Shown here piece by piece: positions 6,333 through 38,309 of a stretch of DNA of 64,000 nucleotides. The notes under the pieces were generated by a model. It searched no databases, was not told the origin of the DNA, and saw only the letters and a program-made list of their open reading frames with translations. The stretch's first letter is position 1, and each line of letters opens with the position of its first letter. A program made the position numbers and the translations under genes. This DNA is from Stegostoma tigrinum (lineage: Eukaryota). The stretch is taken from the NCBI RefSeq assembly GCF_030684315.1, contig NC_081386.1, forward strand, positions 3,295,914 through 3,359,913, written 5' to 3'.

Positions 6333-7787
6333 AGATAATAAAATGTGAGGCTGGATGAACACAGCAGGCCAAGCAGCATCTCAGGAGCACAAAAGCTGAC
6401 ATTTCGGGCCTAGACCCTTCATCAGAGAGGGGGATGGGGAGAGGGAACTGGAATAAATAGGGAGAGAGGGGGAGGTGGACCGAAGATGGAGAGTAAAGAA
6501 GATAGGTGGAGAGAGTGTAGGTGGGGAGGTAGGGAGGGGACAGGTCAGTCCAGGGAAGACGGACAGGTCAAGGAGGTGGGATGAGGTTAGTAGGTAGCTG
6601 GGGGTGCGGCTTGGGGTAGGAGGAAGGGATGGGTGAGAGGAAGAACAGGTTAGGGAGGCAGAGACAGGTTGGACTGGTTTTGGGATGCAGTGGGTGGGGG
6701 GGGAAGAGCTGGGCTGGTTGTGTGGTGCAGTGGGGCGAGGGGACGAACTGGGCTGGTTTAGGGATGCAGTCGGGGAAAGGGAGATTTTGAAACTCGTGAA
6801 GTCCACATTGATACCATATGGCTGTAGCGTTCCCAGGCGGAATATGAGATGCTGTTCCTGCAACCTTCGGGTGGCATCATTGTGGCATTGCAGGAGGCCC
6901 ATGACGGACATGTCATCTAGAGAATGGGAGGGGGAGTGGAAATGGTTTGCGACTGGGAGGTGCAGTTGTTTGTTGCGAACTGAGCGGAGGTGTTCTGCAA
7001 AGCGGTCCCCAAGCCTCTGCTTGGTTTCCCCAATGTAGAGGAAGCCGCACCGGGTACAGTGGATGCAGTATACCACATTGGCAGATGTGCAGGTGAACCT
7101 CTGCTTAATGTGGAATGTCATCTTGGGGCCTGGGATGGGGGTGAGGGAGGAGGTGTGGGGACAGGTGTAGCATTTCCTGCGGTTGCAGGGGAAGGTGCCG
7201 GGTGTGGTGGAGTTGGAGGGCAGTGTGGAGCGAACAAGGGAGTCACGGAGAGAGTGGTCTCTCCGGAAAGCTGACAGGGGAGGGGATGGAAAAATGTCTT
7301 GGGTGGTGGGGTCAGATTGTAAATGGCGGAAGTGTCGGAGGATAATGCGTTGTATCCGGAGGTTGGTAGGGTGGTGTGTGAGAACGAGGGGGATCCTCTT
7401 TGGGCGGTTGGGGCGGGGTGTGAGGGATGTGTTGCAGGAAATACGGGAGACGCGGTCAAGGGCGTTCTCGATCACTGTGGGGGGAAAGTTGTGGTCCTGA
7501 AAGAACTTGGACATCTGGGATGTGCGGGAGTGGAATGTCTTATCGTGGGAGCAGATGCGGCGGAGGCGGAGGAATTGGGAATAGGGGATGGAATTTTTGC
7601 AGGAGGGTGGGTGGGAGGAGGTGTATTCTAGGTAGCTGTGGGAGTCGGTGGGCTTGAAATGGACATCAGTTACAAGCTGGTTGCCTGAGATGGAGACTGA
7701 GAGGTCCAGGAAGGTGAGGGATGTGCTGGAGATTGCCCAGGTGAACTGAAGGTTGGGGTGGAAGGTGTTGGTGAAGTGGATGAACTC
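6333..7787 (-). mobile_element. Young 5'-truncated Penelope-like retroelement (RT thumb + GIY-YIG endonuclease)
   Basis: Open frame FIHFTNTFHPNLQFTW...KPTDSHSYL...CTSANVVYCIHCTRCGFLYIGETKQRLGDRFAEH...LGTLQPYGIN. Exact 14-bp TSD TTCTTGTGCATCTA at 6319-6332 and 7788-7801. Confidence 0.93.
6395..6429 (-). ncRNA. Minimal type I hammerhead ribozyme motif in PLE terminus
   Basis: Minus strand: ctct CTGATGA a gggt ctag gccc GAAA t GTC ag. Core intact except the C15.2 to U change. Confidence 0.6.
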
Positions 7788-10979: not shown

Positions 10980-11127
10980 ATGGCTCAAGAAACCAATCAG
11001 ACTCAAGTGCCTATGCTGTGTACCACTGGCTGTGGATTTTATGGGAACCCACGAACGAATGGCATGTGTTCAGTTTGCTATAAGGATTTTCTTCAAAGGC
11101 AAAACAATAATGGCAGAATAAGTCCTG
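10980..11127 (+). CDS. ZFAND6: ZFAND6 first coding exon (A20 zinc finger)
   Basis: Acceptor tttctcttgcaag|10965; ATG at 10980. Translates [49 protein letters not shown], near-identical to the ZFAND5/6 N-terminus. Donor G|gtaaat, phase 1. Confidence 0.97.
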
Positions 11128-14032: not shown

Positions 14033-14144
14033 TGTCTCCCAATTTGAACAATTTAACTGAAGTGTATCCTGTTCACTGTACAGAAGAGAATCTCCCAGAA
14101 ATACCATCATCATTCTCTTCTTCCTCCACTTCAGGCCAATCAAG
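14033..14144 (+). CDS. ZFAND6: ZFAND6 coding exon 2 (linker)
   Basis: ttttttcctcatgcag acceptor. Reads VSPNLNNLTEVYPVHCTEENLPEIPSSFSSSSTSGQS (compare human SLSESLPVQCTDGSVPE). Donor AG|gtatgt; phases 1 to 2 are consistent. Confidence 0.92.
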
Positions 14145-15667: not shown

Positions 15668-18600
15668 AAAAATGACACATCCTGTATCTTTTAGTCTGTG
15701 ACTGCCTCCACTACACCCACTCTTACCCCACCCACCTACCTCCACTCCAGTTCTGGACTCATTGGTAGCGCACAAGGGAGCACTGCAGTGTGCGTGTGCG
15801 TGCGTAATCAGAAATACATCTGTGAGAGGAAGCAGTGTTACCGTTTCGGATCCGGTGACCTCTCTCGCGAACCAAGCATGTTACACATTGGAAAGACTAC
15901 AGTGGAGATTTTTAATTTACTGGATTACTAGACCACTGGGTTTTTTTAAAGTCTGATTGAGATCTAACACAATAAGATTAATCATTTCTCATTGCACAAT
16001 CTAGAATACTGTTCACTGGTCCCTTTTAATATATTGGGTTTAAAAAAAACTATCACCTGCGGTAGGGTTATCAGGCTATCAGAAATCATCCTCCAAAATA
16101 CTATTGCAAGTTTGGTTTGTCCAATTTATATATAAATTGTAGTCACTCGTGACTACAGTTGTACCTTTATTGCATGTATCTCTGATTTCTTGTTTAATCC
16201 CTTTCCTTATGTCTTCAGTACTGTTTGCGGGAGGATGGACTTAATGCTCCCAGTATTTCTTATCTCCTCCAGTAGATTCAATATCCTGATTTTCTGAGCC
16301 AGTATCTTTCCTTGGTGTGGCATTGAGAGCCTCCTTCGCTTGCAGTGCTACTTGACAACTTTCCTTTTTGTCTATCCTTTCCAAGTAGTTCCCATCGTTG
16401 ATCATCCTGCAACCATGTCTTTGAAATCACAACTGTCATAAATTAGTAACATAAGTAGATATAAATGGTTATGTACCTAATTGCAAGCACTCTGCGTTAG
16501 AGCACAAAGACTTCAGATCTATTTAGTTCTATCTATCTTGTTAGTCATCTTAGTATAATTTTGTACTATGACCCTATTTGTTTATCACTTGATTTTTCTG
16601 TCTTCAGTTTTGGCTCCTGACCATTCTGTCTCTTGGCCTTTTACTTTTATCCTTATTTCTGCTGCCTCTGTCTGCTCAGATTCCTGCAACTTTGCCATTC
16701 TAGTTTGAGCCCTTCCCCACAGCACTAGCCAACACTCCAACTCCCCAAAATCACTGATAGTGATTTTGTCTGGGTAAATTCTGATGAAACCAAAACATTA
16801 ACTGTTTCTCTAGACTCTGCCAAACCTGTGGGCACATTTAGGATTTTCTGTTTTTATTTCAAATTTCTAGTATCTGCATAAGCTTGTATTTGTGATATTA
16901 TAAAGTGCTTGGGTTTGATTGCAAGGGAGAGATATAGTCATCGTTCAATTCAGTATAGATTGTATAGATTAATTGTATACTGTTGGAAGAATGGACAAAT
17001 AGAAACCAGTAACACTTATGGTCAGTGGATGAGTGTCTGGGTCCCACGTCGTTGTGATTTTGTAATGGCAAATGCACACAGGTTTGGAACCTTTAAATTT
17101 GGTGTCCAAAAAAGTCTGGAAAAAAAATAGTAATTTACCATAAGTAGTCATAAACCTCTATGGTTAATTAAATCACTAAAATTAACCGGATGATTTCAGA
17201 ATTCTTTCTCTTCTATCTTCTGCCATTGAAATTTGTAGAACCTTCCACTTTGTTCTGTCCTGCAGCTGAATTGGTGTTTTAACAACCATACCTGTTGTGA
17301 TTTTTTAAAAAAATGCTGCTGGTTTAGAGCTTTATCTTGAGGACAGGTTCTTGTGTTCTACTTTCTAGTTATTGAACATTGCCATGTCAGTCAATTCTAC
17401 TGCAATTGCCCCTTATTCCTGATCTCTGTGGGAAGTTTAAAAATAAAATTTAGCCAATAGAATAACTGTACACTTTTTTTTGCTTTTGTGGAATCATTTC
17501 AAGAGCCAAACTATTTTGTTATCCAGTATTTTTCTCTTGTGAACAACTTGAGTTTTATAATCTGCATTGGTTTTGTGTCCTTAGCTGTGGTTCTCGTCCG
17601 TTTAAAGACCATAGTGTTCACAAACAGATGTCTGTTGGTTGAAATTCTTTACTCTAGGTTTTAGTGGAGGTGTTGGATCAATTTAAACATGTCATCTCTT
17701 CTAAAAGAAAAAGCAGAGTAAAGCATTTCTTGCTAACATGTTCATAGATCAGTGCCCCTGAGTGTTATGTTACGGCCACTTGTCAATCTGGCCATGTAGC
17801 AATCGCTAAAATAGACTTGGGAATTCTACATTCGACCATTATTTCTCAACTCTGATCAATTAATTTAAATAATGAGGAGAGGGTTTTAAAAGAATTGTGC
17901 TCCTGTGAAAATCCCAGTTATAGGACACTATATTTTTAAGCTTGTTATTAACTAAATAAAGTAAGAGCTATTGTAAATTGTTTGTTTTTGCTGTTGTTTT
18001 TATTAATCTGATTTTAAAATAAATTAGTTTAATATGGTAAGGTAATTAATGGCGAAAGATGTATGAACTGTTGTATGTTTACTCAACCTTCAGTCCACAA
18101 CCAATAATGGGAAGAGGGAAAAGGGGAAGAAAGCAAAGAGAGAAGAAGGGAAGATCTATTAAAAGAGAGGGAAGAAAGGGAAGGAAGAGGTAAGAAAAAG
18201 GATTAGGAGAGCACATAAATTTTAAAGGAAGAATAAGAAAAATATAGGAGGAAGTTAGAAACTCTTAAGATTTGGGAATATGATAAAATGACTTGTGCAT
18301 ACAGCAAAACCAGTTCATGATATTAAATTCTGTGAATGGTTCATCTTTTCTCTATTAAGCTCTATACTGATCTCTTCCACAGTAAGAAGTCAATTTCTGT
18401 GATTAATTAAATCTTTTAATTAGCAGAACTGTAATGGAGATAAGGCAATTTTTAAGGCAGATTTCCTGATATTATTTGGTGCCAGTTTCACACTTTTGGC
18501 TATTGTTTTTGCTGTATTTTCCCTGCACGGGATTTATCTAGTCTCAGTTGCTTTTCTTTAAAAGAACTCTTCAGGTGAAATGTGTAATTTAATTGAATCA

Positions 18601-25819: not shown

Positions 25820-26370
25820 GGGGATGGGGAGAGGGAACTGGAATAAATAGGGAGAGAGGGGGAGGCGGACCGAAGATGGAGAGTAAAGAAGATAGGTGGA
25901 GAGAGTATAGGTAGGTAGAGGGGATAGGTCAGTCCAGGGAAGACTGACAGATCAAGGAGGTGGGATGAGGTTAGTAGGTAGATGGGGGTGTGGCTTGGGG
26001 TGGGAGGAAGGGATGGGTGAGAGGAAGAACCGGTTAGGGAGGCAGAGACAGGTTGGACTGGTATTGGGATGCAGTGGGTGGGGGGGAAGAGCTGGGCTGG
26101 TTGTGTGGTGCAGTGGGGGAAGGGGACGAACTGGGCTGGTTTAGGGATGCAGTAGGGGAAGGGGAGATTTTGAAACTAGTGAAGTCCACATTGATACCAT
26201 TAGGCTGCAGGGTTCCCAGGCGGAATATGAGTTGCTGTTCCTGCATAAGACAAGTTGCTGCCCCTCCCTTCCTCCCCACCTATACTCTCTCCACCTATCT
26301 TCTTTTCTCTCCGTCTTCGGTCCGCCTCCCCCTCTCTCCCTATTTATTCCAGTTCCCTCTCCCCATCCCC

Positions 26371-28305: not shown

Positions 28306-28415
28306 ATCAGTGTCCAATCAGCTGCTGCTACTATCCCGTGAATCGGTAACGAGTCCCCAAAGTGATGGGGACCACACAGAAGATAACCAAGCAATGACTA
28401 AAAAAGAGTTGCAGG
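28306..28415 (+). CDS. ZFAND6: ZFAND6 coding exon 3 (linker)
   Basis: tttcttttgcag acceptor. Reads RSVSNQLLLLSRESVTSPQSDGDHTEDNQAMTKKELQ (compare human PVSNQSLLSESVASSQ). Donor G|gtaac; phases 2 to 1. Confidence 0.92.
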
Positions 28416-28805
28416 GTAACTTTTTTATTTTCAGATATCGTTTTCAGTGCCATCTGATTGAAAATTTAACTTTAAATCTGCTTGAACACAAAACATTACA
28501 ACATGCAAATTAAGTACTTTAAAAGTAAACATGTACGATCAGCATTCCAGGAGAAATGATTTGATTGAAGATATCTCTAGATAGGGAGAATAAGTAGGTG
28601 GCTAATGTGTCTGAATTGTTCCTTTGCATCAAGTGCATGGAGCATTTGCGATGTGATTGAGATTTTATCCAATTTAAAACACAGTCTTCACCTCTAATTT
28701 GAAATTTGTTCTGAGCTCCTAATTTATTAAAAAAATCCGTGGTCTCTGTGACTTTGTTACCCTCCTTTTTCTTTCTCCTCTTGCCTTTTCTGCCCTTTTC
28801 TTCTC

Positions 28806-29389: not shown

Positions 29390-29617
29390 ATTTGGGTGGG
29401 AATCAACAGTTAGAGCGAACAACGCTGGACAGTTGTGACAGATCATTAGTGGGGAATAATGGCGAAGACTGTTCAGATTACTCCAGCTCATCCAAGAACA
29501 CAGACACAGGGTACAGCTATGATGCTAGCACAGAGAGTGAGGCAGATGACTGCATACCGCTGGAGGAGGTTTCACGGAGGACTAAGAGAAAAATAGAGGA
29601 GGCATACACAGACCTAG
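29390..29617 (+). CDS. ZFAND6: Candidate symmetric (phase 1-1) cassette exon of ZFAND6, 76 aa
   Basis: Acceptor ctgatctgattcttgtggcag| and donor CTAG|gtaaaa. 228 nt, stop-free in exactly the frame needed between the flanking exons: DLGGNQQLERTTLDSCDRSLVGNNGEDCSDYSSSSKNTDTGYSYDASTESEADDCIPLEEVSRRTKRKIEEAYTDL. Confidence 0.65.
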
Positions 29618-29739
29618 GTAAAACTTTCTTTTTAGGATATATACTATGCACAGATAATACTGTAGCAGTTCTCCCTTTCCCCTTTTTTAATACCCCATTT
29701 CACACATGTTGCATGTGATTCACGTACAGGTTTTTGGCA

Positions 29740-31560
29740 CATACAGCTTTTGGGAATAGGAGTAGGCCTTTTGGCCCTTGTGATGTACTCTGCCATTGAA
29801 TAAGATTGTGGCTGATTTGGCTGTGGTCTAAACCTCCATTCATCTGTCAGCACCCATGACCCTCAACTACTTGTCAAAAATCAACCTAACCTGGCTCCAA
29901 ATAAACTTAATGATCAACCTCCTATGCTCTGGAGAGGAGAATTTCACATTCGGAAGACTGAGTGGGGGTGGGGGGGGACCTCTAATCCCTTAAAGCAAGA
30001 CCTCTTATTCTTGAGTTATTACCTATGTTTAGTCTGCCCACAAGATTTCTTCCTGGTATCTACCAATAGAACCCCCTTAATCTTCTGTTTTGATTAAAAT
30101 CACCTCTCGTTCTCAAACTCCATTAGATATAGGTTTAAACTGTTCAATCTTTCTTCATAGGCTCTCCATCCTGAAAGTATTAACAGCCATGCCTTTAGAA
30201 GACTCTAGGATGCTGGCCATCTTGTTCTGGAGCTTGTCAGCCTTTTGCTTCAAGTTTTCCTCGTGTCTGTCCTTTGATTTATTTGGTTTTTAGTTCATGC
30301 TTCCCCATTTCCTCTTAATTTTCAATTATCCTTAGGAAATTTACCAAGTCTTCATGATAGAAAACAGAAAATTCCTGTTAAAAGCCTCTGCACTTCCATT
30401 ACCAATCACTTACTCTTTTCCTGTCTAAATACCTATTTTAAAAACTGACATTCCATTATATATTGCCAAGCAGCCTTCTCTAATACCATGCTTACTGCCT
30501 GTCTCTTTATTCTCTTTTAGTGATTCTTAAAGTATACCCAGTCCTGTGACCTACTAATGCTTTAATATTAAATTAAAAATTTGATCTACAGTTTTTGTTA
30601 ATTTATTTAGCTATGGATAATGCATGTTCTGAAAGACCATTACTTTCTCACTAGGATAATGCATTTGGATAGTAACTGCTTTCATACCCTAAAGGTCGTC
30701 ATTATTTGGTTTTAAAGCACCAGACATGGCCCTCCACTTTACTGTTCAAACTGAGCATTAAATTCTGTTGCATTGTGATTGTGTTACCAAGATGCTGCTT
30801 TAACATGAAGTAATTGATTGATCGTGTCTCATTGGCTATTTTAGAGATTTGGTAATATACAACCTGGAAACAGGCAATGTAACATGCTGTTCTGAGAAAC
30901 ACACTGAAAACTCATTCCACTTTTGCCAATCTAAATATAAGAATTACAGGTGACTGGCTGCATGATCTCTTTTACATGCCTCATTTACTTCCTGTATGCT
31001 CCTTCGTACAGTGGAAGTGTTTGGGATCTACAATTATACCCACAAATGGCATCTTAACTTTTACTATTTCCTGTCTGTAACCAGACTAAGGTCATCTGTT
31101 TAGTATTGAAGTAGTGCCATTCTTGATGTGTCAGAGTAGTTCTTTTAATTTTGTTTTAATCTTTCTGTCATTCCAATAGGTTATATATCCTTCAATATTT
31201 AAGGTTCCATTCTTGGTCACCTTTCAGCCATGCCTCTATAATGTCTGAGTCAATAATTCATCCCTTTTTGTTAAAAATGCTGCATGCGTTCAGATCCAGA
31301 GTCTTACTTTAAAAAAAACACTTTTGCAATATCTGGATTTGTCTGCTGATGCAGTCCAAATGACTGTACAATTTATCACTGGTAATCCTCACTCAGATTT
31401 CTGCTCTATTGTATTACTACTTTTTTTCCTTTTACTATATCCCCTCTCCTGTGATCTCCTCAGCCCCCACACATTTTTAATTTTAGTGACCTCTTTACCA
31501 CCCTGATTATACAATTTTGCCAAAATACTGCCCTAGCAATTGTACAACCCTCCCTTTTTG
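29740..31560 (-). mobile_element. Decayed CR1-like LINE fragments
   Basis: CR1 tail (ataggagtaggccttttggccc...) and scattered endonuclease-region remnants. Confidence 0.5.
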
Positions 31561-31669: not shown

Positions 31670-31786
31670 CTTCTACATCTGAAGAAATTGCAGAGACATC
31701 TTCTGACAGACAGGATAAATCTCCTGAAAAACCCAAGCAGAAGAAGAATCGTTGTTTTACCTGCCGGAAAAAAGTAGGACTTACAG
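31670..31786 (+). CDS. ZFAND6: ZFAND6 penultimate coding exon (start of AN1 finger)
   Basis: ctgttaaag acceptor. Reads ASTSEEIAETSSDRQDKSPEKPKQKKNRCFTCRKKVGLT. Donor G|gtcagt. Confidence 0.96.
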
Positions 31787-33309
31787 GTCAGTATTGCCTG
31801 CTGGACAGGATTCAGTGCATAGGACATGTATGTGTAGCTCAGTTATGAGTATCTGATTGGACATGTCTCTGTGTAGGAATGCAGAAGTGGTGGTGATTGT
31901 TCTCGTGCTGATTTTGAATTTTTCATCTGTCTAATTCACCACCTTATTAACTCACTGTTGTGCCTATTTTAACTTGGGATCAAGTCACTGCCTTGGCTAG
32001 AATTTTCATGTTTTTAAAAAGTTCTGCCATGGTGATTGTGTATTCCGTGTCTTAGCCAGTGAAGCAAGATGGGAATTTATTGCCTTGTTAATGCTACTGT
32101 TAGTGTTTGACCACGTAATGGAGTAGCCTGATGTTCTCACCCCACTAGCTGATCCTTGCATGAAACTGAGTTTCTTGAAGATTATATATTTGCTGTCAAT
32201 CCATAGCTCAGTTTATTGATGTGCTAACTCTATTGGGCACACTATATAATCTTGAAGCTATAGAATAATTTGACAAGCAAGGTGTTTGCATGGAAATAGT
32301 GCTGCACTGTATGAAATTTATTTAATTGTTATTTCTTGGCTGTTTTACTACTCTAGCATCAGAGAAGTAAGGATAACCCCAACCTGTTACCCAGCACAAG
32401 CTGAGAGAGGAGCTCATCAATTTCCTTCATAATATTGATATTGTTTATACAGCTATCCCTTCCTGCTTCCCTGTCTGTCCCCACCCTTAGACTTCTTATG
32501 AAGTTCTCTGTCTGCCCCCTCAACTCCTTTCTCCTTTCCACAATCTCCCCTTAGCACAGTGTTTCTGATGCCTGAATGTGTCTCCTTTTGTTTTCCCCTT
32601 TGTGCAGATTGTGTATCTCTCTTCCAGTCACTGGCCTACAAAACTGAGATTACCCTACAGCTGTGCACTGTCTCATCTTGCCCGTCATGGCTTCATAGTT
32701 ATCCATACAATAACTTTTTTTTTGTTCAATATTGTCTCCACCCTATCTTGATTTTTATTCTTGCATGTTCCAAGGTTCCAACAGAGCTTGGTGATTCTTG
32801 AGGAGAGATTTTACATTAATGTGGAGTGTGTACAATTCTGTATTTAACTTGTGTTGTAACTGCCCTGAGGACATTTGATTGGGAGGTTCTCTTTGAACTT
32901 CAAAGAAATTAGTAAGAGGGGAGAAAGTAAAGAAATACAAATGTGGTGTTGGATTGGGGTGGACAAGGTCAGAAATCAAATGACACCAGGTATTTGGAAA
33001 AACTGACAGTAAAGGCTGTACATGTGTTTAGACAAGGAGAATTTGCCAAAGCGAACATCCTTCCCTTAGGTGAGATATGGGGAAATAATAGTCTCATAGT
33101 TTGGAATATCAGAGGTTTTGAACAGAACGAACAGTAGAAAATGAGGAGGCAAATGAGAGAAAAACTTATACCAATCACTATTGCTGGATGGAATGTAAAG
33201 GGAGAACTAGAGGAACTGAAGGCTGTCAAACACCTCCTTCAAGAAAGGAAAACAGGAAATTTATGTAAATCACAAAGAACAGTGGTGAACGACAGCAAAT
33301 GACACTGAA

Positions 33310-35890
33310 ACTGGTGGTTTAGTGGACAGTGGAGAAGGTGACCACGAGACAAAATAAGAGATAGACAAGTAGTTAAGGAATCTCCTGTGGCCAATTCACT
33401 GGTATTTGGTAATAGGGGATGGCATTTTTACAGGAAGGTGGCTGCGAGGAGGAATATCCCAGGTAGTTGTGGGAGTTGGTAGGTTTAAAATGGATATCGG
33501 TTTCCACGTGAGATGAAGACAGAGGTCCAGGAAGGAGAGCGAGATGTCAGAGATGGTCCAGGTAAACTTAAGTTTGGGGTGGAAGGTGTTAGTGAAGTGG
33601 ATGAACTGTTCAAGCTCCTTGTGGGAACACGAGGCGGCGCCAAAACAGTCATCAGTGTAATGGAGGAAGAGATGGGGAATAGGGCCAGTGTAGCTTCGGA
33701 AGAGGGATTGTTCCACGTAACCTACGAAGAGACAGGCATAGCTTGGGCCCATGCGGGTACCCATGGCCACCCCCTTTGTCTGTAAGAAGTGGGAGAAATT
33801 AATGGAGAATTTGTTGAGGGTGAGGATGAGTTCGGCTAAGCAGATGAGGGTGTTAGTGGAGGCGGACTGGTCGGGTCTTTGGGAGAGGAAGAAGCAGAAA
33901 GTTTTTAAGCCATCGGCATGGGGAATGCAGGTGTCCAGTGTGAAAATGAGGTGTTGGGGACCAGGGGAATTGGAAGTTCTGGAGGAGGTGAAGAGCATGG
34001 GTGGTGTCACGGACATAGGTAGGGAGTCCCTGGACCAAGGAGGAGAAAATGGAATCCAGATAGGTGGAGATGAGTTTGGTGGGGCAGGAGCCACCATGAT
34101 GGTATGTTGCCTCCCTGGCGCCAAGGTCAAAGATGTCTGAATGGGTGCAGGACATTCTGGAGGGGGAAAGTGTGAGCAGCCAATGGTCGCGGTATACATT
34201 GGTACAAACGACATAGGTAAAAGATGAGATCCTGAAAGCAGAATACAGGGAGTTATGAAGAATACTAAGAAATTGGCCCTCAAAGGTAGCGATCTCAGGA
34301 TTTCTACTGGGGCCACATGCTAGTCAATAGAATTGACAGGATTTATCAGACGAATACGTGACTGAAAAGATGGTGTCAGGAGGAGGGTTTCAGATTCCTG
34401 GGAAGGTGGGGCCTGAACAAATTAGACGGGTCATACCTCAGCAGAATGCTCGCTAGAGCGTTTTGTGGACGGTTTAAACTAATATGCCAGGGGGATGGGA
34501 ACCTATGTAAGGAGGTCAGAGGGGGGAGTGAGGACAAAAACAAAAGTTAGAAAAGGGAGTAAGAAAAGAGGCAGAGGAACCAAGGACAAAATTCAAACAG
34601 GGCTACTGAGAAATGAGTGAGACAGAAGATCCTGAAAAGACAAGCTTAAAGGCTTTGTGCCTTAACGTGTGGGGCATCTGCAATAAAGTGGATGAATTAA
34701 TCATGCAGATTAATGTAAATGGGTACAACATTAATTGGGATTATAGAGACAAAGTTGCATGGTGACCAGGGATGAGAACTGAATGATCCAGGTTATTCAG
34801 TATTTAGGAAGGACAGGCAGAAAGGAAAAGATGGCAGAGTGGCTTTGCTGGTTAAAGGAAATTCTCACAATAGTGAAAAAGGATACTAGCTTTGACAATG
34901 TGGAGTCTATATGGTTGAAGTTGGTAAACACCCAGAGGCAATAAATGTTAGTAGGTGTCATTATATAGATCCCAAACTGCAGTGGTGATGTTGGGAATGG
35001 TATTAAACAGGAAATTAGAAAGCACATGGTAAGGGTATATCGGTGATCATGGGTGACTTTAATCTGCACATAGATTGGGCAAATCAAATTAGCCACAATG
35101 CAGTAGAGGAATTCCTGGAGTGTATACAAGATGGTTTTCTTGACTAATATGTGGAGAAATCAACTAGAGAACAGGCCATCTTATACTGGGTGCTGTGTAA
35201 TGAGAAGGGAACCATTAGCAGTCTAGCTATGCGAGATCCCTTGGGGTGAGAGACCATAACATTTATAGCATTTTTTTCTTTAGTCAAGATGGAGAATGAG
35301 AAATTTGACTAGGGTGCTGAATTCTAATAGAGGAAACTATGAAGATATGAGGCATGAGTTGGCCTTGATTGGGGAGAGTTACTTAAAGGGATAACAATGG
35401 GTAGGCAATTACAAATATTCAAGGAACGCATAGGGGAATTACAACAACTGTTTTATTTCTGTCTGGCACAAAAGCAAAATAGGTAAGAGGACCAGTCCAT
35501 GGCTTACCAAGGAAACTAGAGACTGTCCAATCCAAGGATTGGATTGGTGAGCCACACCTGGAATATTGTATCCAGTTTTGGTCTCCTTTCCTGGGGAAGG
35601 ATGCTCTTGCTCTTGTGGGAGTGCAGTGAAGGCTGATTCTGGGGATGGCAGGACTGACATATGAGGAGAAATTGACTGACTAGGTTAGAATTGTTTTCGC
35701 TGGAGTTCAGCCGAAATGAGGGGAGTCTCTCAGACTTATAAAATTCTAACAGGACTGGTCAGGGTAGATGCAGGAAGGATGTTCCTGATGCTGGGTGTTT
35801 CCAGAACGATGGGTCACCAGTCTGAGGATTCAGGGTAGATCATTTAGGATAGAGATAAGGAGACATTACTTCTCAAAGTAGTGAGCTTGT
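33310..35890 (+). mobile_element. Degraded CR1-type LINE with ORF1 esterase-like and APE endonuclease remnants
   Basis: VCCLPGAKVKDV...VYIGTNDIGKR (SGNH-like ORF1); LNV..I.NKVDEL; IMGDFNL; ILYWVLCN; 3' RT remnant. Interrupted by a PLE. Confidence 0.8.
33396..34100 (-). mobile_element. PLE reverse transcriptase core fragment
   Basis: QTKGVAMGTRMGPSYACLFVG...LHYTDDCFG...FIHFTNTFHPKLKFTW. Confidence 0.9.
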
Positions 35891-35904
35891 GGAATTCATT
35901 ACAT

Positions 35905-37950
35905 AGTTCACTACACGTAGTTCCTTGAAAGTAGTGTCACAGGTAGACAGGGTGGAAAAGAAGGCATTTGGCCCACTTGCCATCATTGCTCTGAGCATTG
36001 AGCACAAGAGTTGGGACTGCACATTATGGCTGTACGAAATCTTGGTAAGATCACATTTGGAGTATTGCATACAATTCCTGGTTGCCTTGATAGAAGAACA
36101 AATTTATTAAACTGAAAAGGGTTCAAAAGAGATTTTACAAGGATGTTGCTGAGGTTTACGTTATAACGAGAGGCTGGATAGGCTGGGAACTTCCTCCCTG
36201 AAACATAGGAGGCTGGGGTGGGGTGGGGTGACCTTCACTCATGATTTTATAAACCTCTAAGATGAATAGCCAAGGTCACTTCTTCCCCCCCTCCCCCAAC
36301 CTGGAGGGCATGAGAGGGAAAAGATGTACAAGGGCCCTGAAGGGCAAATTTTTCTTGGTGCATGTATGTGGAATGAAATGCCAGAAGAAGTGGTAGAGGG
36401 GAATAAAATTGCAACATTTTAAAATATATTTGTACAGGTATATTGATAGGAAAGATTTAGTGGGTTATGGACCAAATGCAGGCAGATGAAGCCAGTTCAG
36501 TTTAGGAAACCTGGTTGGCATGGCTGAGTTGGGCCAAAGAGTCTGACTGTGTTGTATAACTATAGGCAGGGCAGTATGATATGTCACTGGGAGATACTTG
36601 AATACCTTATTTATGAGGTCATAGCAAAGACATTTTGGTCAGGCAGTGTCTGTAGTTTTGGAACATAGTAACTTATGCTTGACAGACCTATTGGAGTTCT
36701 CTTTGAGGATATGAGAAGCTGAGCCTTTAAAATGGAGTCGTAGATGTCGCGTTCATTTGATATTCTGAAGAGTTACTACATAATGTAAATGTATATGTTG
36801 TTTTGGCTGATCTATTAGCATGTATTGAGGTCTGGCTAATAGGAAATAGTCAGGATAAATGGGCCATTTTCAATTTGGCAGACTTTAACTATTGGAATGT
36901 TAGAGAGACCTCCTACGAAGGCCTCCTCTAACTAGGGTCCATATAAAAATGACTTGGATGAACAGACTATCTTGCAGTCAGATCTCTGAAAGATACTTGA
37001 GTAAATAGGGAAGTAAGTTGCGAGGAGGCTACAAAGTGGCCAAAAGTGATATGAGTGACTTAGATGAAGGAGCTGAATGTGTCGTTGCTAAATTTGCCGA
37101 TGATATAAAGATATTGTTTTGAAGATATGAGTTAACAAAAGGATATCGACGGGTTAAATGGGACATAAGATGGGAAAATGTGAAGCTGTACATTTGTTGG
37201 AAAGAAGAGAAAGAAAAAACCCATTTAAATGGAGAGACCTTGCAGAACTCGGCAGTATATTTGAGTATCGTTGTATGAGAATCAAAGTGCCAATATGCAA
37301 ATTCCTCAATTAGGAAGGTAAATCAGTGCTGTGTTTATTGTTTTTTTTTAAAAAGTAGACTGTAAAAGTAGAAAAGTCATGTTATGGCTGTATAGGGCAT
37401 TGAGACCAATTGACCACTGTACATCTTGGTTAAAGAGGGATATGTTGGTGTTGGAAGCAGTTCAGAACACACTTAGTTAACTGGTTCCTGAAGTGAAGGA
37501 TTTGCCTTTATTATGAAATGTTGAGCAAGTTGGACTTTTACTTAGTTTAGAGAAAAGGGCGCTATCTGATTGAAAAGAATAATACACTGAAAAGACTTGA
37601 CTTTATAGATTCTAGGAGTATGCTTCCTCTCCTATAAAGGTATTTAGGACTAGGAGACAGATGTCCCATCTCACATGGAGCTTGGGAAGAATTTGTTATT
37701 CGTGGAATTCTCTCTTTTGAGAGAACAATGGAGACGAGAGCATTGAGCATATTCAGTGCTGAGTTAGATGGATGTTTGACAAAGGAGTGAAAGGTAATGG
37801 GGGGGTGGGGGGGGTGGGGGGGGTGCGGGTGGAGACAGGGAGGTGCTAAATGAAAATGGAATGAAGGCCACAACCAAATCAGCCATGATCTTGTTGAATT
37901 GCAGAGCAGGACCAAGGCACCCAAACTACCTACTACTACTCCTAATTCTT
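35905..37950 (+). mobile_element. Cluster of decayed CR1 RT 3' fragments
   Basis: QVDRVEKKAFG...LYEILVRSHLEYCIQF; KFADDIK; CR1 tails at ~36560 and ~37950. Confidence 0.7.
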
Positions 37951-38160
37951 AATTCTCGTGGAGCACTTAGCATGTCCCTGTGTACATTGTTAAATATTTG
38001 GTAAGAAACTTGAATAAAATGTAGGGAGGGAGAGAGGTGCTACAAACACAGTATAATCTTACAGTATCAGTGAAATAACAGTGAGTCACCTGTAAGTATT
38101 TGCTCTTTCAACTCCTAAATTTATAATGGATGCATGTTCTAACTCTGTTCTTGTTTCCAG

Positions 38161-38309
38161 GATTTGATTGCAGATGTGGAAATTTGTTCTGTGGATTACA
38201 TCGTTATTCTGATAAGCACAGTTGTCCTTATGATTACAAAGCTGACGCTGCTGAAAAAATAAGGAAAGAAAATCCTGTTGTAGTTGGAGAGAAGATCCAG
38301 AAAATTTGA
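38161..38309 (+). CDS. ZFAND6: ZFAND6 last coding exon (AN1 finger C-half to stop)
   Basis: ctgttcttgtttccag acceptor. Reads [49 protein letters not shown], then TGA at 38307-38309. The spliced CDS is 636 nt (211 aa). Confidence 0.97.

Follow-up and report, generated by a model that had tools for sequence, protein, structure and literature searches.

The Stegostoma tigrinum DNA analysed here, a 64-kb stretch referred to as the window, carries the gene for the zinc-finger protein ZFAND6 on its + strand. Between coding exons 3 and 4 of this gene lies a 228-nt open interval (29390..29617, + strand), here called exon A, which would add 76 aa to the linker between the A20 and AN1 fingers. The locus therefore raises two questions, namely whether exon A is a genuine cassette exon and, if so, what its peptide might contribute.

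Gene structure and coding capacity

ZFAND6 is made up in the window of five constitutive coding exons and two cassettes (A and B), all on the + strand. Coding exon 1 (10980..11127) holds the start codon and the A20 zinc finger, exons 2 (14033..14144) and 3 (28306..28415) encode linker, exon 4 (31670..31786) encodes the end of the linker and the start of the AN1 finger, and the coding part of the last exon (38161..38309) supplies AN1 finger, C-terminal region and stop codon. Exon 3 ends in phase 1 and is the upstream neighbour of exon A. Residues encoded by the other exons of the window are identical to S. tigrinum isoform X2 (238/238), and in protein P0069, whose exons equal those of the window (238/238), the Pfam domains zf-A20 (PF01754) and zf-AN1 (PF01428) both score above cut-off. 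A PDB search with ZFAND6 gave a strong match to ZFAND5 chains, which at 213 aa have no room for the exon A insert, unlike the shark long form. The human ZFAND6 protein is 208 aa long. Mammalian ZFAND6/AWP1 and ZFAND5/ZNF216 share with shark ZFAND6 the A20 and AN1 fingers and an inter-finger region that is described as flexible (PMC11799193). In mammals the A20 finger is reported to bind ubiquitin chains (PMC11731517), while the AN1 finger and C-terminal region are reported to bind and activate the proteasome and to form a ubiquitin-independent degron (bioRxiv 10.64898/2026.06.05.730379).

An earlier note, made from this DNA, had described exon A as bounded by AG and GT, 228 nt long, stop-free and in phase 1-1 like its host intron, all of which checks out. 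The reading frame is free of stops, as against 4 and 7 in the two alternative frames. Spliced models give 287 aa with exon A and 211 aa without it, as had been stated, with the zinc fingers and C-terminus unchanged by inclusion; in an include/skip pair from Heptranchias the linker grows from 118 to 198 residues. The peptide, described as D/E/S-rich, has 17 D/E, 18 S/T and 8 K/R in 75 whole codons (net charge -9). The peptide had also been said to end in SRRTKRK, which is wrong, as eight more whole codons follow this patch.

Among intronic 75-codon stretches, 717 of 26,145 (2.7%) are stop-free, and the host intron contains 204 stop-free AG..GT candidates, of which 68 are frame-preserving; exon A ranks first on a crude splice-site score. 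The open frame and splice ends of exon A are not decisive by themselves. A blastn comparison of exon A plus 200 nt of flanking sequence with the rest of the 64-kb window gave no match, and it revealed no repeat or duplicated exon from which exon A could derive. With regard to repeats, the window has an inverted pair of about 80 nt (29750-29829 and 37865-37945, 74% identical), probably pieces of a dispersed repeat, one copy being 130 nt below exon A. Two short tandem arrays (6670-6770 and 26054-26165) have nearly the same 39-nt unit and probably belong to one repeat family.

Exon A in other sharks and rays

A word-based peptide search with the 75 exon A residues returned 55 candidates, of which the ten that passed are all shark or ray ZFAND6 isoforms. 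The clusters of these matches yielded 21 named RefSeq/UniRef ZFAND6 records from six species, along with two assembly proteins, that carry exon A. The named records are Scyliorhinus canicula X1-X5 (five records, e.g., XP_038669174.1), S. torazame X1-X5 (five), Heptranchias perlo X1-X4 (four, XP_067827732.1), Heterodontus francisci X1, X3 and X4 (three), Pristiophorus japonicus X1-X2 (two) and Narcine bancroftii X1-X2 (two, XP_069767395.1). All 21 are automatic predictions. The exon is the same in these isoforms as in the window, in the same position and frame, and is spliced to exon 4 in 18 of the 21 records, the remaining three (Heterodontus) reading through its donor. Exon A is almost certainly a real cassette exon because it is conserved, with 62-73 of the 75 residues identical in seven other elasmobranch sequences.

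As all first matches contained exon A, it could have been taken as constitutive. A further search that started from exons 2-3 instead of exon A ruled this out; 28 of its 61 candidates passed, and their clusters were then expanded. Skip isoforms exist in four of the six species with exon A (S. canicula X6-X7, S. torazame X6-X7, Heptranchias X5-X6 and Heterodontus X2), and this coexistence of include and skip models bears out the proposal of an alternatively spliced isoform. Of 22 elasmobranch species, 16 gave only skip models and six have exon A in their models. The five RefSeq models retrieved for S. tigrinum (X1-X5) all lack the exon, which along with the 16 skip-only species suggests that inclusion may be rare. 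However, absence from the models does not equate to absence of use, as is evident with Leucoraja erinacea. The three RefSeq models retrieved for this species skip exon A, but assembly protein P0025 (from a 1374-nt contig, and one of a skate-type pair, P0025/P0079) is letter for letter Leucoraja X2 with exon A added. This identity once exon A is removed points to a spliced transcript. For the lineage of S. tigrinum, the intact exon in the window fills a gap in the models retrieved, as five orectolobiform species are skip-only.

The records compared show exon A to be a conserved exon of elasmobranchs that is alternatively spliced and that automatic annotation has already captured. The earlier note held that an exon annotated as a long isoform would be real but not novel, and this applies to exon A, which is included in long isoforms in public gene models of other species. 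No paper on exon A was found in the literature covered, from which subscription journals are largely absent. In mammals, an alternative promoter variant of ZFAND6 concerns the 5′-UTR (PMC6143958), and a human testis cassette exon appears as a table entry, its position not being found in the text or two supplements of that source (PMC2941758). A mouse testis Zfand6 exon was considered as a counterpart of exon A and ruled out, being described as a 5′-UTR exon (PMC4111849).

Across eight sequences, 55 of the 75 exon A residues are invariant, compared with 19/36 for exon 2 and 23/36 for exon 3, both of which are constitutive and belong to the linker. Two invariant runs stand out in exon A, these being residues 26-51 and 57-71. 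Pairwise comparison shows a borderline excess of conservation with the skate-type sequence (67/75 against 70/91, Fisher p=0.04) and no excess with Narcine (62/75 against 70/91, p=0.44). The excess is stronger for the 3′ core of the exon (p=0.001 for the skate-type sequence and 0.04 for Narcine), a split that was chosen after seeing the data. The sole indel, of four residues and frame-preserving, separates the window, Heterodontus and Scyliorhinus (galeomorphs) from Heptranchias, Pristiophorus and the batoids. On the elasmobranch species tree, this division between galeomorphs and squalomorphs plus batoids fits descent from an elasmobranch ancestor.

No bony-vertebrate match to exon A was found in the word-based search (ten matches from 55 candidates, all elasmobranch), a method by which a diverged or unannotated exon could be missed. 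Against 1.84 billion representatives clustered at 50% identity, the exon matched just one shark ZFAND6 and one bacterial protein, a result of little weight as a negative since a cluster representative need not carry exon A and a diverged or unannotated exon could escape here too. The bacterial protein, a 637-aa repeat protein, was rejected as a chance match. Pfam has no family for exon A, the ESM Atlas gave no usable match and the best PDB hit had an E-value of only 1.2; a coiled-coil Pfam match to the skate-type fragment was sub-threshold (E=0.068) and was rejected. Two models from Callorhinchus are without exon A, but these decide nothing, as most shark models are also without it. These matches are most simply read as a gain on the lineage of cartilaginous fishes or of elasmobranchs. 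The earlier wording, loss in mammals or gain in fishes, is too broad, as all matches apart from the unrelated bacterial protein are elasmobranch.

Acidic tract, predicted basic helix and candidate localisation signals

The peptide of exon A appears to be built in two parts. The first contains an invariant acidic block rich in S, T and Y (29467..29544, +; exon A residues 26-51), a run of 26 consecutive invariant residues in the eight sequences. The second is a predicted amphipathic basic helix (29560..29616, +; residues 57-75), which includes the RRTKRK patch (29575-29592) and of which residues 57-71 are invariant. Its hydrophobic moment of 0.61 is reached by 0.5% of shuffles. The stretch is amphipathic in all five sequences tested, with 0.04-0.7% of shuffles reaching the moment. 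When the long form from Heptranchias is modelled with AlphaFold, the most confident element (block pLDDT 57-68) is a helix at 217-243 over the 3′ end of exon A; the model is poor overall (mean pLDDT 41.8, pTM 0.15), low in the zinc fingers too and unfit for a fold search. The modelled helix and the amphipathic stretch in all five sequences lead us to read exon A as an acidic, probably disordered tract followed by a putative docking helix.

Our preferred reading, held tentatively and at slightly under an even chance, is that exon A is a tissue-regulated, add-on docking module in the A20-AN1 linker. Its inclusion would place an acidic, probably disordered and phosphorylatable tract, then an amphipathic basic helix, between the zinc fingers. 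The long form would keep its shuttle function and gain a partner or a localisation by means of the helix, with phosphorylation of the acidic tract possibly tuning this gain. Acidophilic kinase sites had been proposed for exon A and consensus matches are indeed present, but 99% of shuffles also match the CK2-type pattern. TRAF2 words were also looked for and are not significant, occurring in 25% of shuffles.

In a rival explanation, RRTKRK would serve as an importin-alpha nuclear localisation signal (NLS) that shifts ZFAND6 to the nucleus. It could do so as a degenerate minor-site signal, or as the first half of a bipartite signal whose long linker leads to the KKNR patch in exon 4. The patch is invariant in the eight sequences, only 0.1% of shuffles have five basic residues out of six, and CK2-type sites are located about 15 residues upstream. 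A paralog, ZFAND3, is also reported to accumulate in the nucleus when overexpressed (PMC11799193). The NLS proposed previously is weak, however, as RRTKRK fails both the classical K(K/R)x(K/R) pattern and the strict class 3 pattern KRx(W/F/Y)xxAF. It also fails Kosugi classes 1 and 2, and it lies inside the predicted helix. What exon A does have is KR-x-I-x-x-A-(Y/F), with F in two batoid sequences, which matches only a relaxed class 3 pattern written after seeing the sequence. Compared with class 3 minor-site signals as described in PMC3946659, exon A has the KR anchor, A at P7′ and an aromatic residue at P8′, but differs with I in place of an aromatic residue at P4′ and, in sharks, with Y in place of F at P8′. 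In the same source, V in place of the P4′ aromatic significantly lowered import. With the bipartite form, the gap from the exon A patch to that of exon 4 is 28 residues, against a typical 10-14 (PMC3946659). Bipartite signals with longer linkers are known. At 287 aa, the long form is smaller than the usual cut-off for passive diffusion, and so an NLS would bias its location but would not gate it. We regard this explanation as rather unlikely.

A better candidate for a localisation signal is cassette exon B (18094..18189, +), which was overlooked in the earlier note. It is 96 nt in length and of phase 2-2, with 15 K/R in 31 codons (net charge +13). Its better standing comes from its two matches to the K(K/R)x(K/R) core and from the invariance of 28 of its 31 residues in seven sequences. 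Exon B is present in records of 20 of the 22 elasmobranch species as well as Callorhinchus, commonly with paired include and skip models. Its peptide search gave 17 candidates, of which the 12 passing are all from cartilaginous fishes, none being a bony-vertebrate match. Exons A and B together would give a protein of 319 aa.

Candidate splicing signals, possible read-through and linker variants

Exon A has a candidate RBFOX site, the word TGCATG (29710..29715, +), 93 nt downstream. A word scan of the + strand located further copies downstream at 30621, 30959 and 31281, and one upstream of the exon at 28634. The 2052-nt downstream intron thus has four, compared with 0.6 expected and with 3 of 1000 shuffles reaching four. 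TGCATG was, however, tested along with two other motifs, a single copy lies within 300 nt (p=0.10) and one copy is upstream. YCAY words within 300 nt downstream were not enriched (7 versus 4.5, p=0.16). The last intron (31787-38160) has six TGCATG words in 6.4 kb, compared with two in the first three introns, which span about 17 kb. The exon A acceptor has 13 pyrimidines in 22 positions, the fewest of the six acceptors, those of the internal exons and the last exon taken together. RBFOX sites downstream of an exon are reported to enhance its inclusion (PMC3575530), and RBFOX1 is reported at high levels in brain, heart and muscle (PMC11874969). Exon A resembles the RBFOX-enhanced cassette exons described in these sources in its apparently UGCAUG-enriched downstream intron, its preserved frame and its weak acceptor. 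RBFOX may accordingly promote exon A inclusion in brain, heart or muscle, and such a tissue pattern would explain the patchy annotation of the exon if tissue sampling differs between species.

These signals also bear on a reading in which the constraint lies in the RNA, exon A being weak and rarely included, conserved for splicing-regulatory sequence, and its peptide a tolerated and inert extension of the linker. The pyrimidine-poor acceptor and the presence of the exon in models of only 6/22 species agree with this. So does the translation beyond the donor, which is similar to that of Heterodontus for about eight codons into the intron, meaning that nucleotide conservation passes the exon edge. 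Yet the frame is open in all eight sequences, the single indel has a length divisible by three, conservative substitutions are numerous and the amphipathicity of the helix is kept. A purely RNA-level cause is, in our judgement, unlikely, and the constraint on exon A probably acts on the protein.

Read-through of the donor suggests another role. In the window, a predicted extension of exon A (29618..29718, +) adds 33 codons before a stop at 29716-29718, with an AATAAA at 29900, and three of the four Heterodontus records retrieved (P0003, P0017 and P0021) read through in the same manner to a stop, without AN1. Exon A could on this basis be a switchable last exon that, with its donor skipped, yields an A20-only, ubiquitin-binding and stable competitor of the full-length protein. 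Stability would follow from the loss of the proteasome-binding degron, and AN1 mutants are reported to be completely stable (bioRxiv 10.64898/2026.06.05.730379). On the other hand, read-through is seen in one of the six species, with 18 of the 21 records splicing to exon 4, the tails vary in length and sequence between species, AATAAA occurs 0.9 times per kb in these introns and retained-intron models can be annotation artefacts, making this role very improbable. Equally doubtful is a phosphodegron, or kinase platform, giving the long isoform signal-dependent turnover: its loose beta-TrCP-like D-T-G word (29503-29523, +), with a three-residue spacer, does lie in the 26-residue invariant run rich in S, T and Y, where CK2-type sites are also found, but the strict pattern, D[ST]Gxx[ST], is absent from exon A, the loose form is in 6% of shuffles and so not significant, and ZFAND5/6 are described as already rapidly degraded without ubiquitin via AN1 and the C-terminus (bioRxiv 10.64898/2026.06.05.730379).

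The two cassettes might also act together as a charge switch. The basic exon B (net +13, also in the chimaera) and the acidic exon A with its basic helix (net -9, putatively RBFOX-driven, elasmobranch) would be combined by tissue so that ZFAND6, as a ubiquitin shuttle that activates the proteasome, is directed to the nucleus or nucleolus, read-through of exon A supplying the stable A20-only competitor; we consider this scheme decidedly improbable as a whole. In mammals the linker of ZFAND6 is regarded as simply a flexible spacer; that of sharks and rays contains two optional modules that are strongly conserved. Should these modules relocate or regulate a protein that activates the proteasome and also restrains NF-κB signalling, nature would have provided a test of the way in which splicing of the linker can retune A20/AN1 proteins.

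Other variation in the gene may be mentioned. The last intron (31787-38160, +) holds a stop-free AG..GT candidate of 183 nt (32608-32790) with a good splice score, which matches no retrieved protein. Exon 2 is shorter by 17 residues in the models of several species (P0007, P0040 and P0042 being among the variant records), and a matching internal acceptor is present in the window at 14084. Models of the two lamniforms Cetorhinus and Carcharodon (P0027, P0028, P0033) have a 23-residue insert after exon 1, while catshark (Scyliorhinus) models P0005 and P0014 have a 7-residue insert before exon 3.
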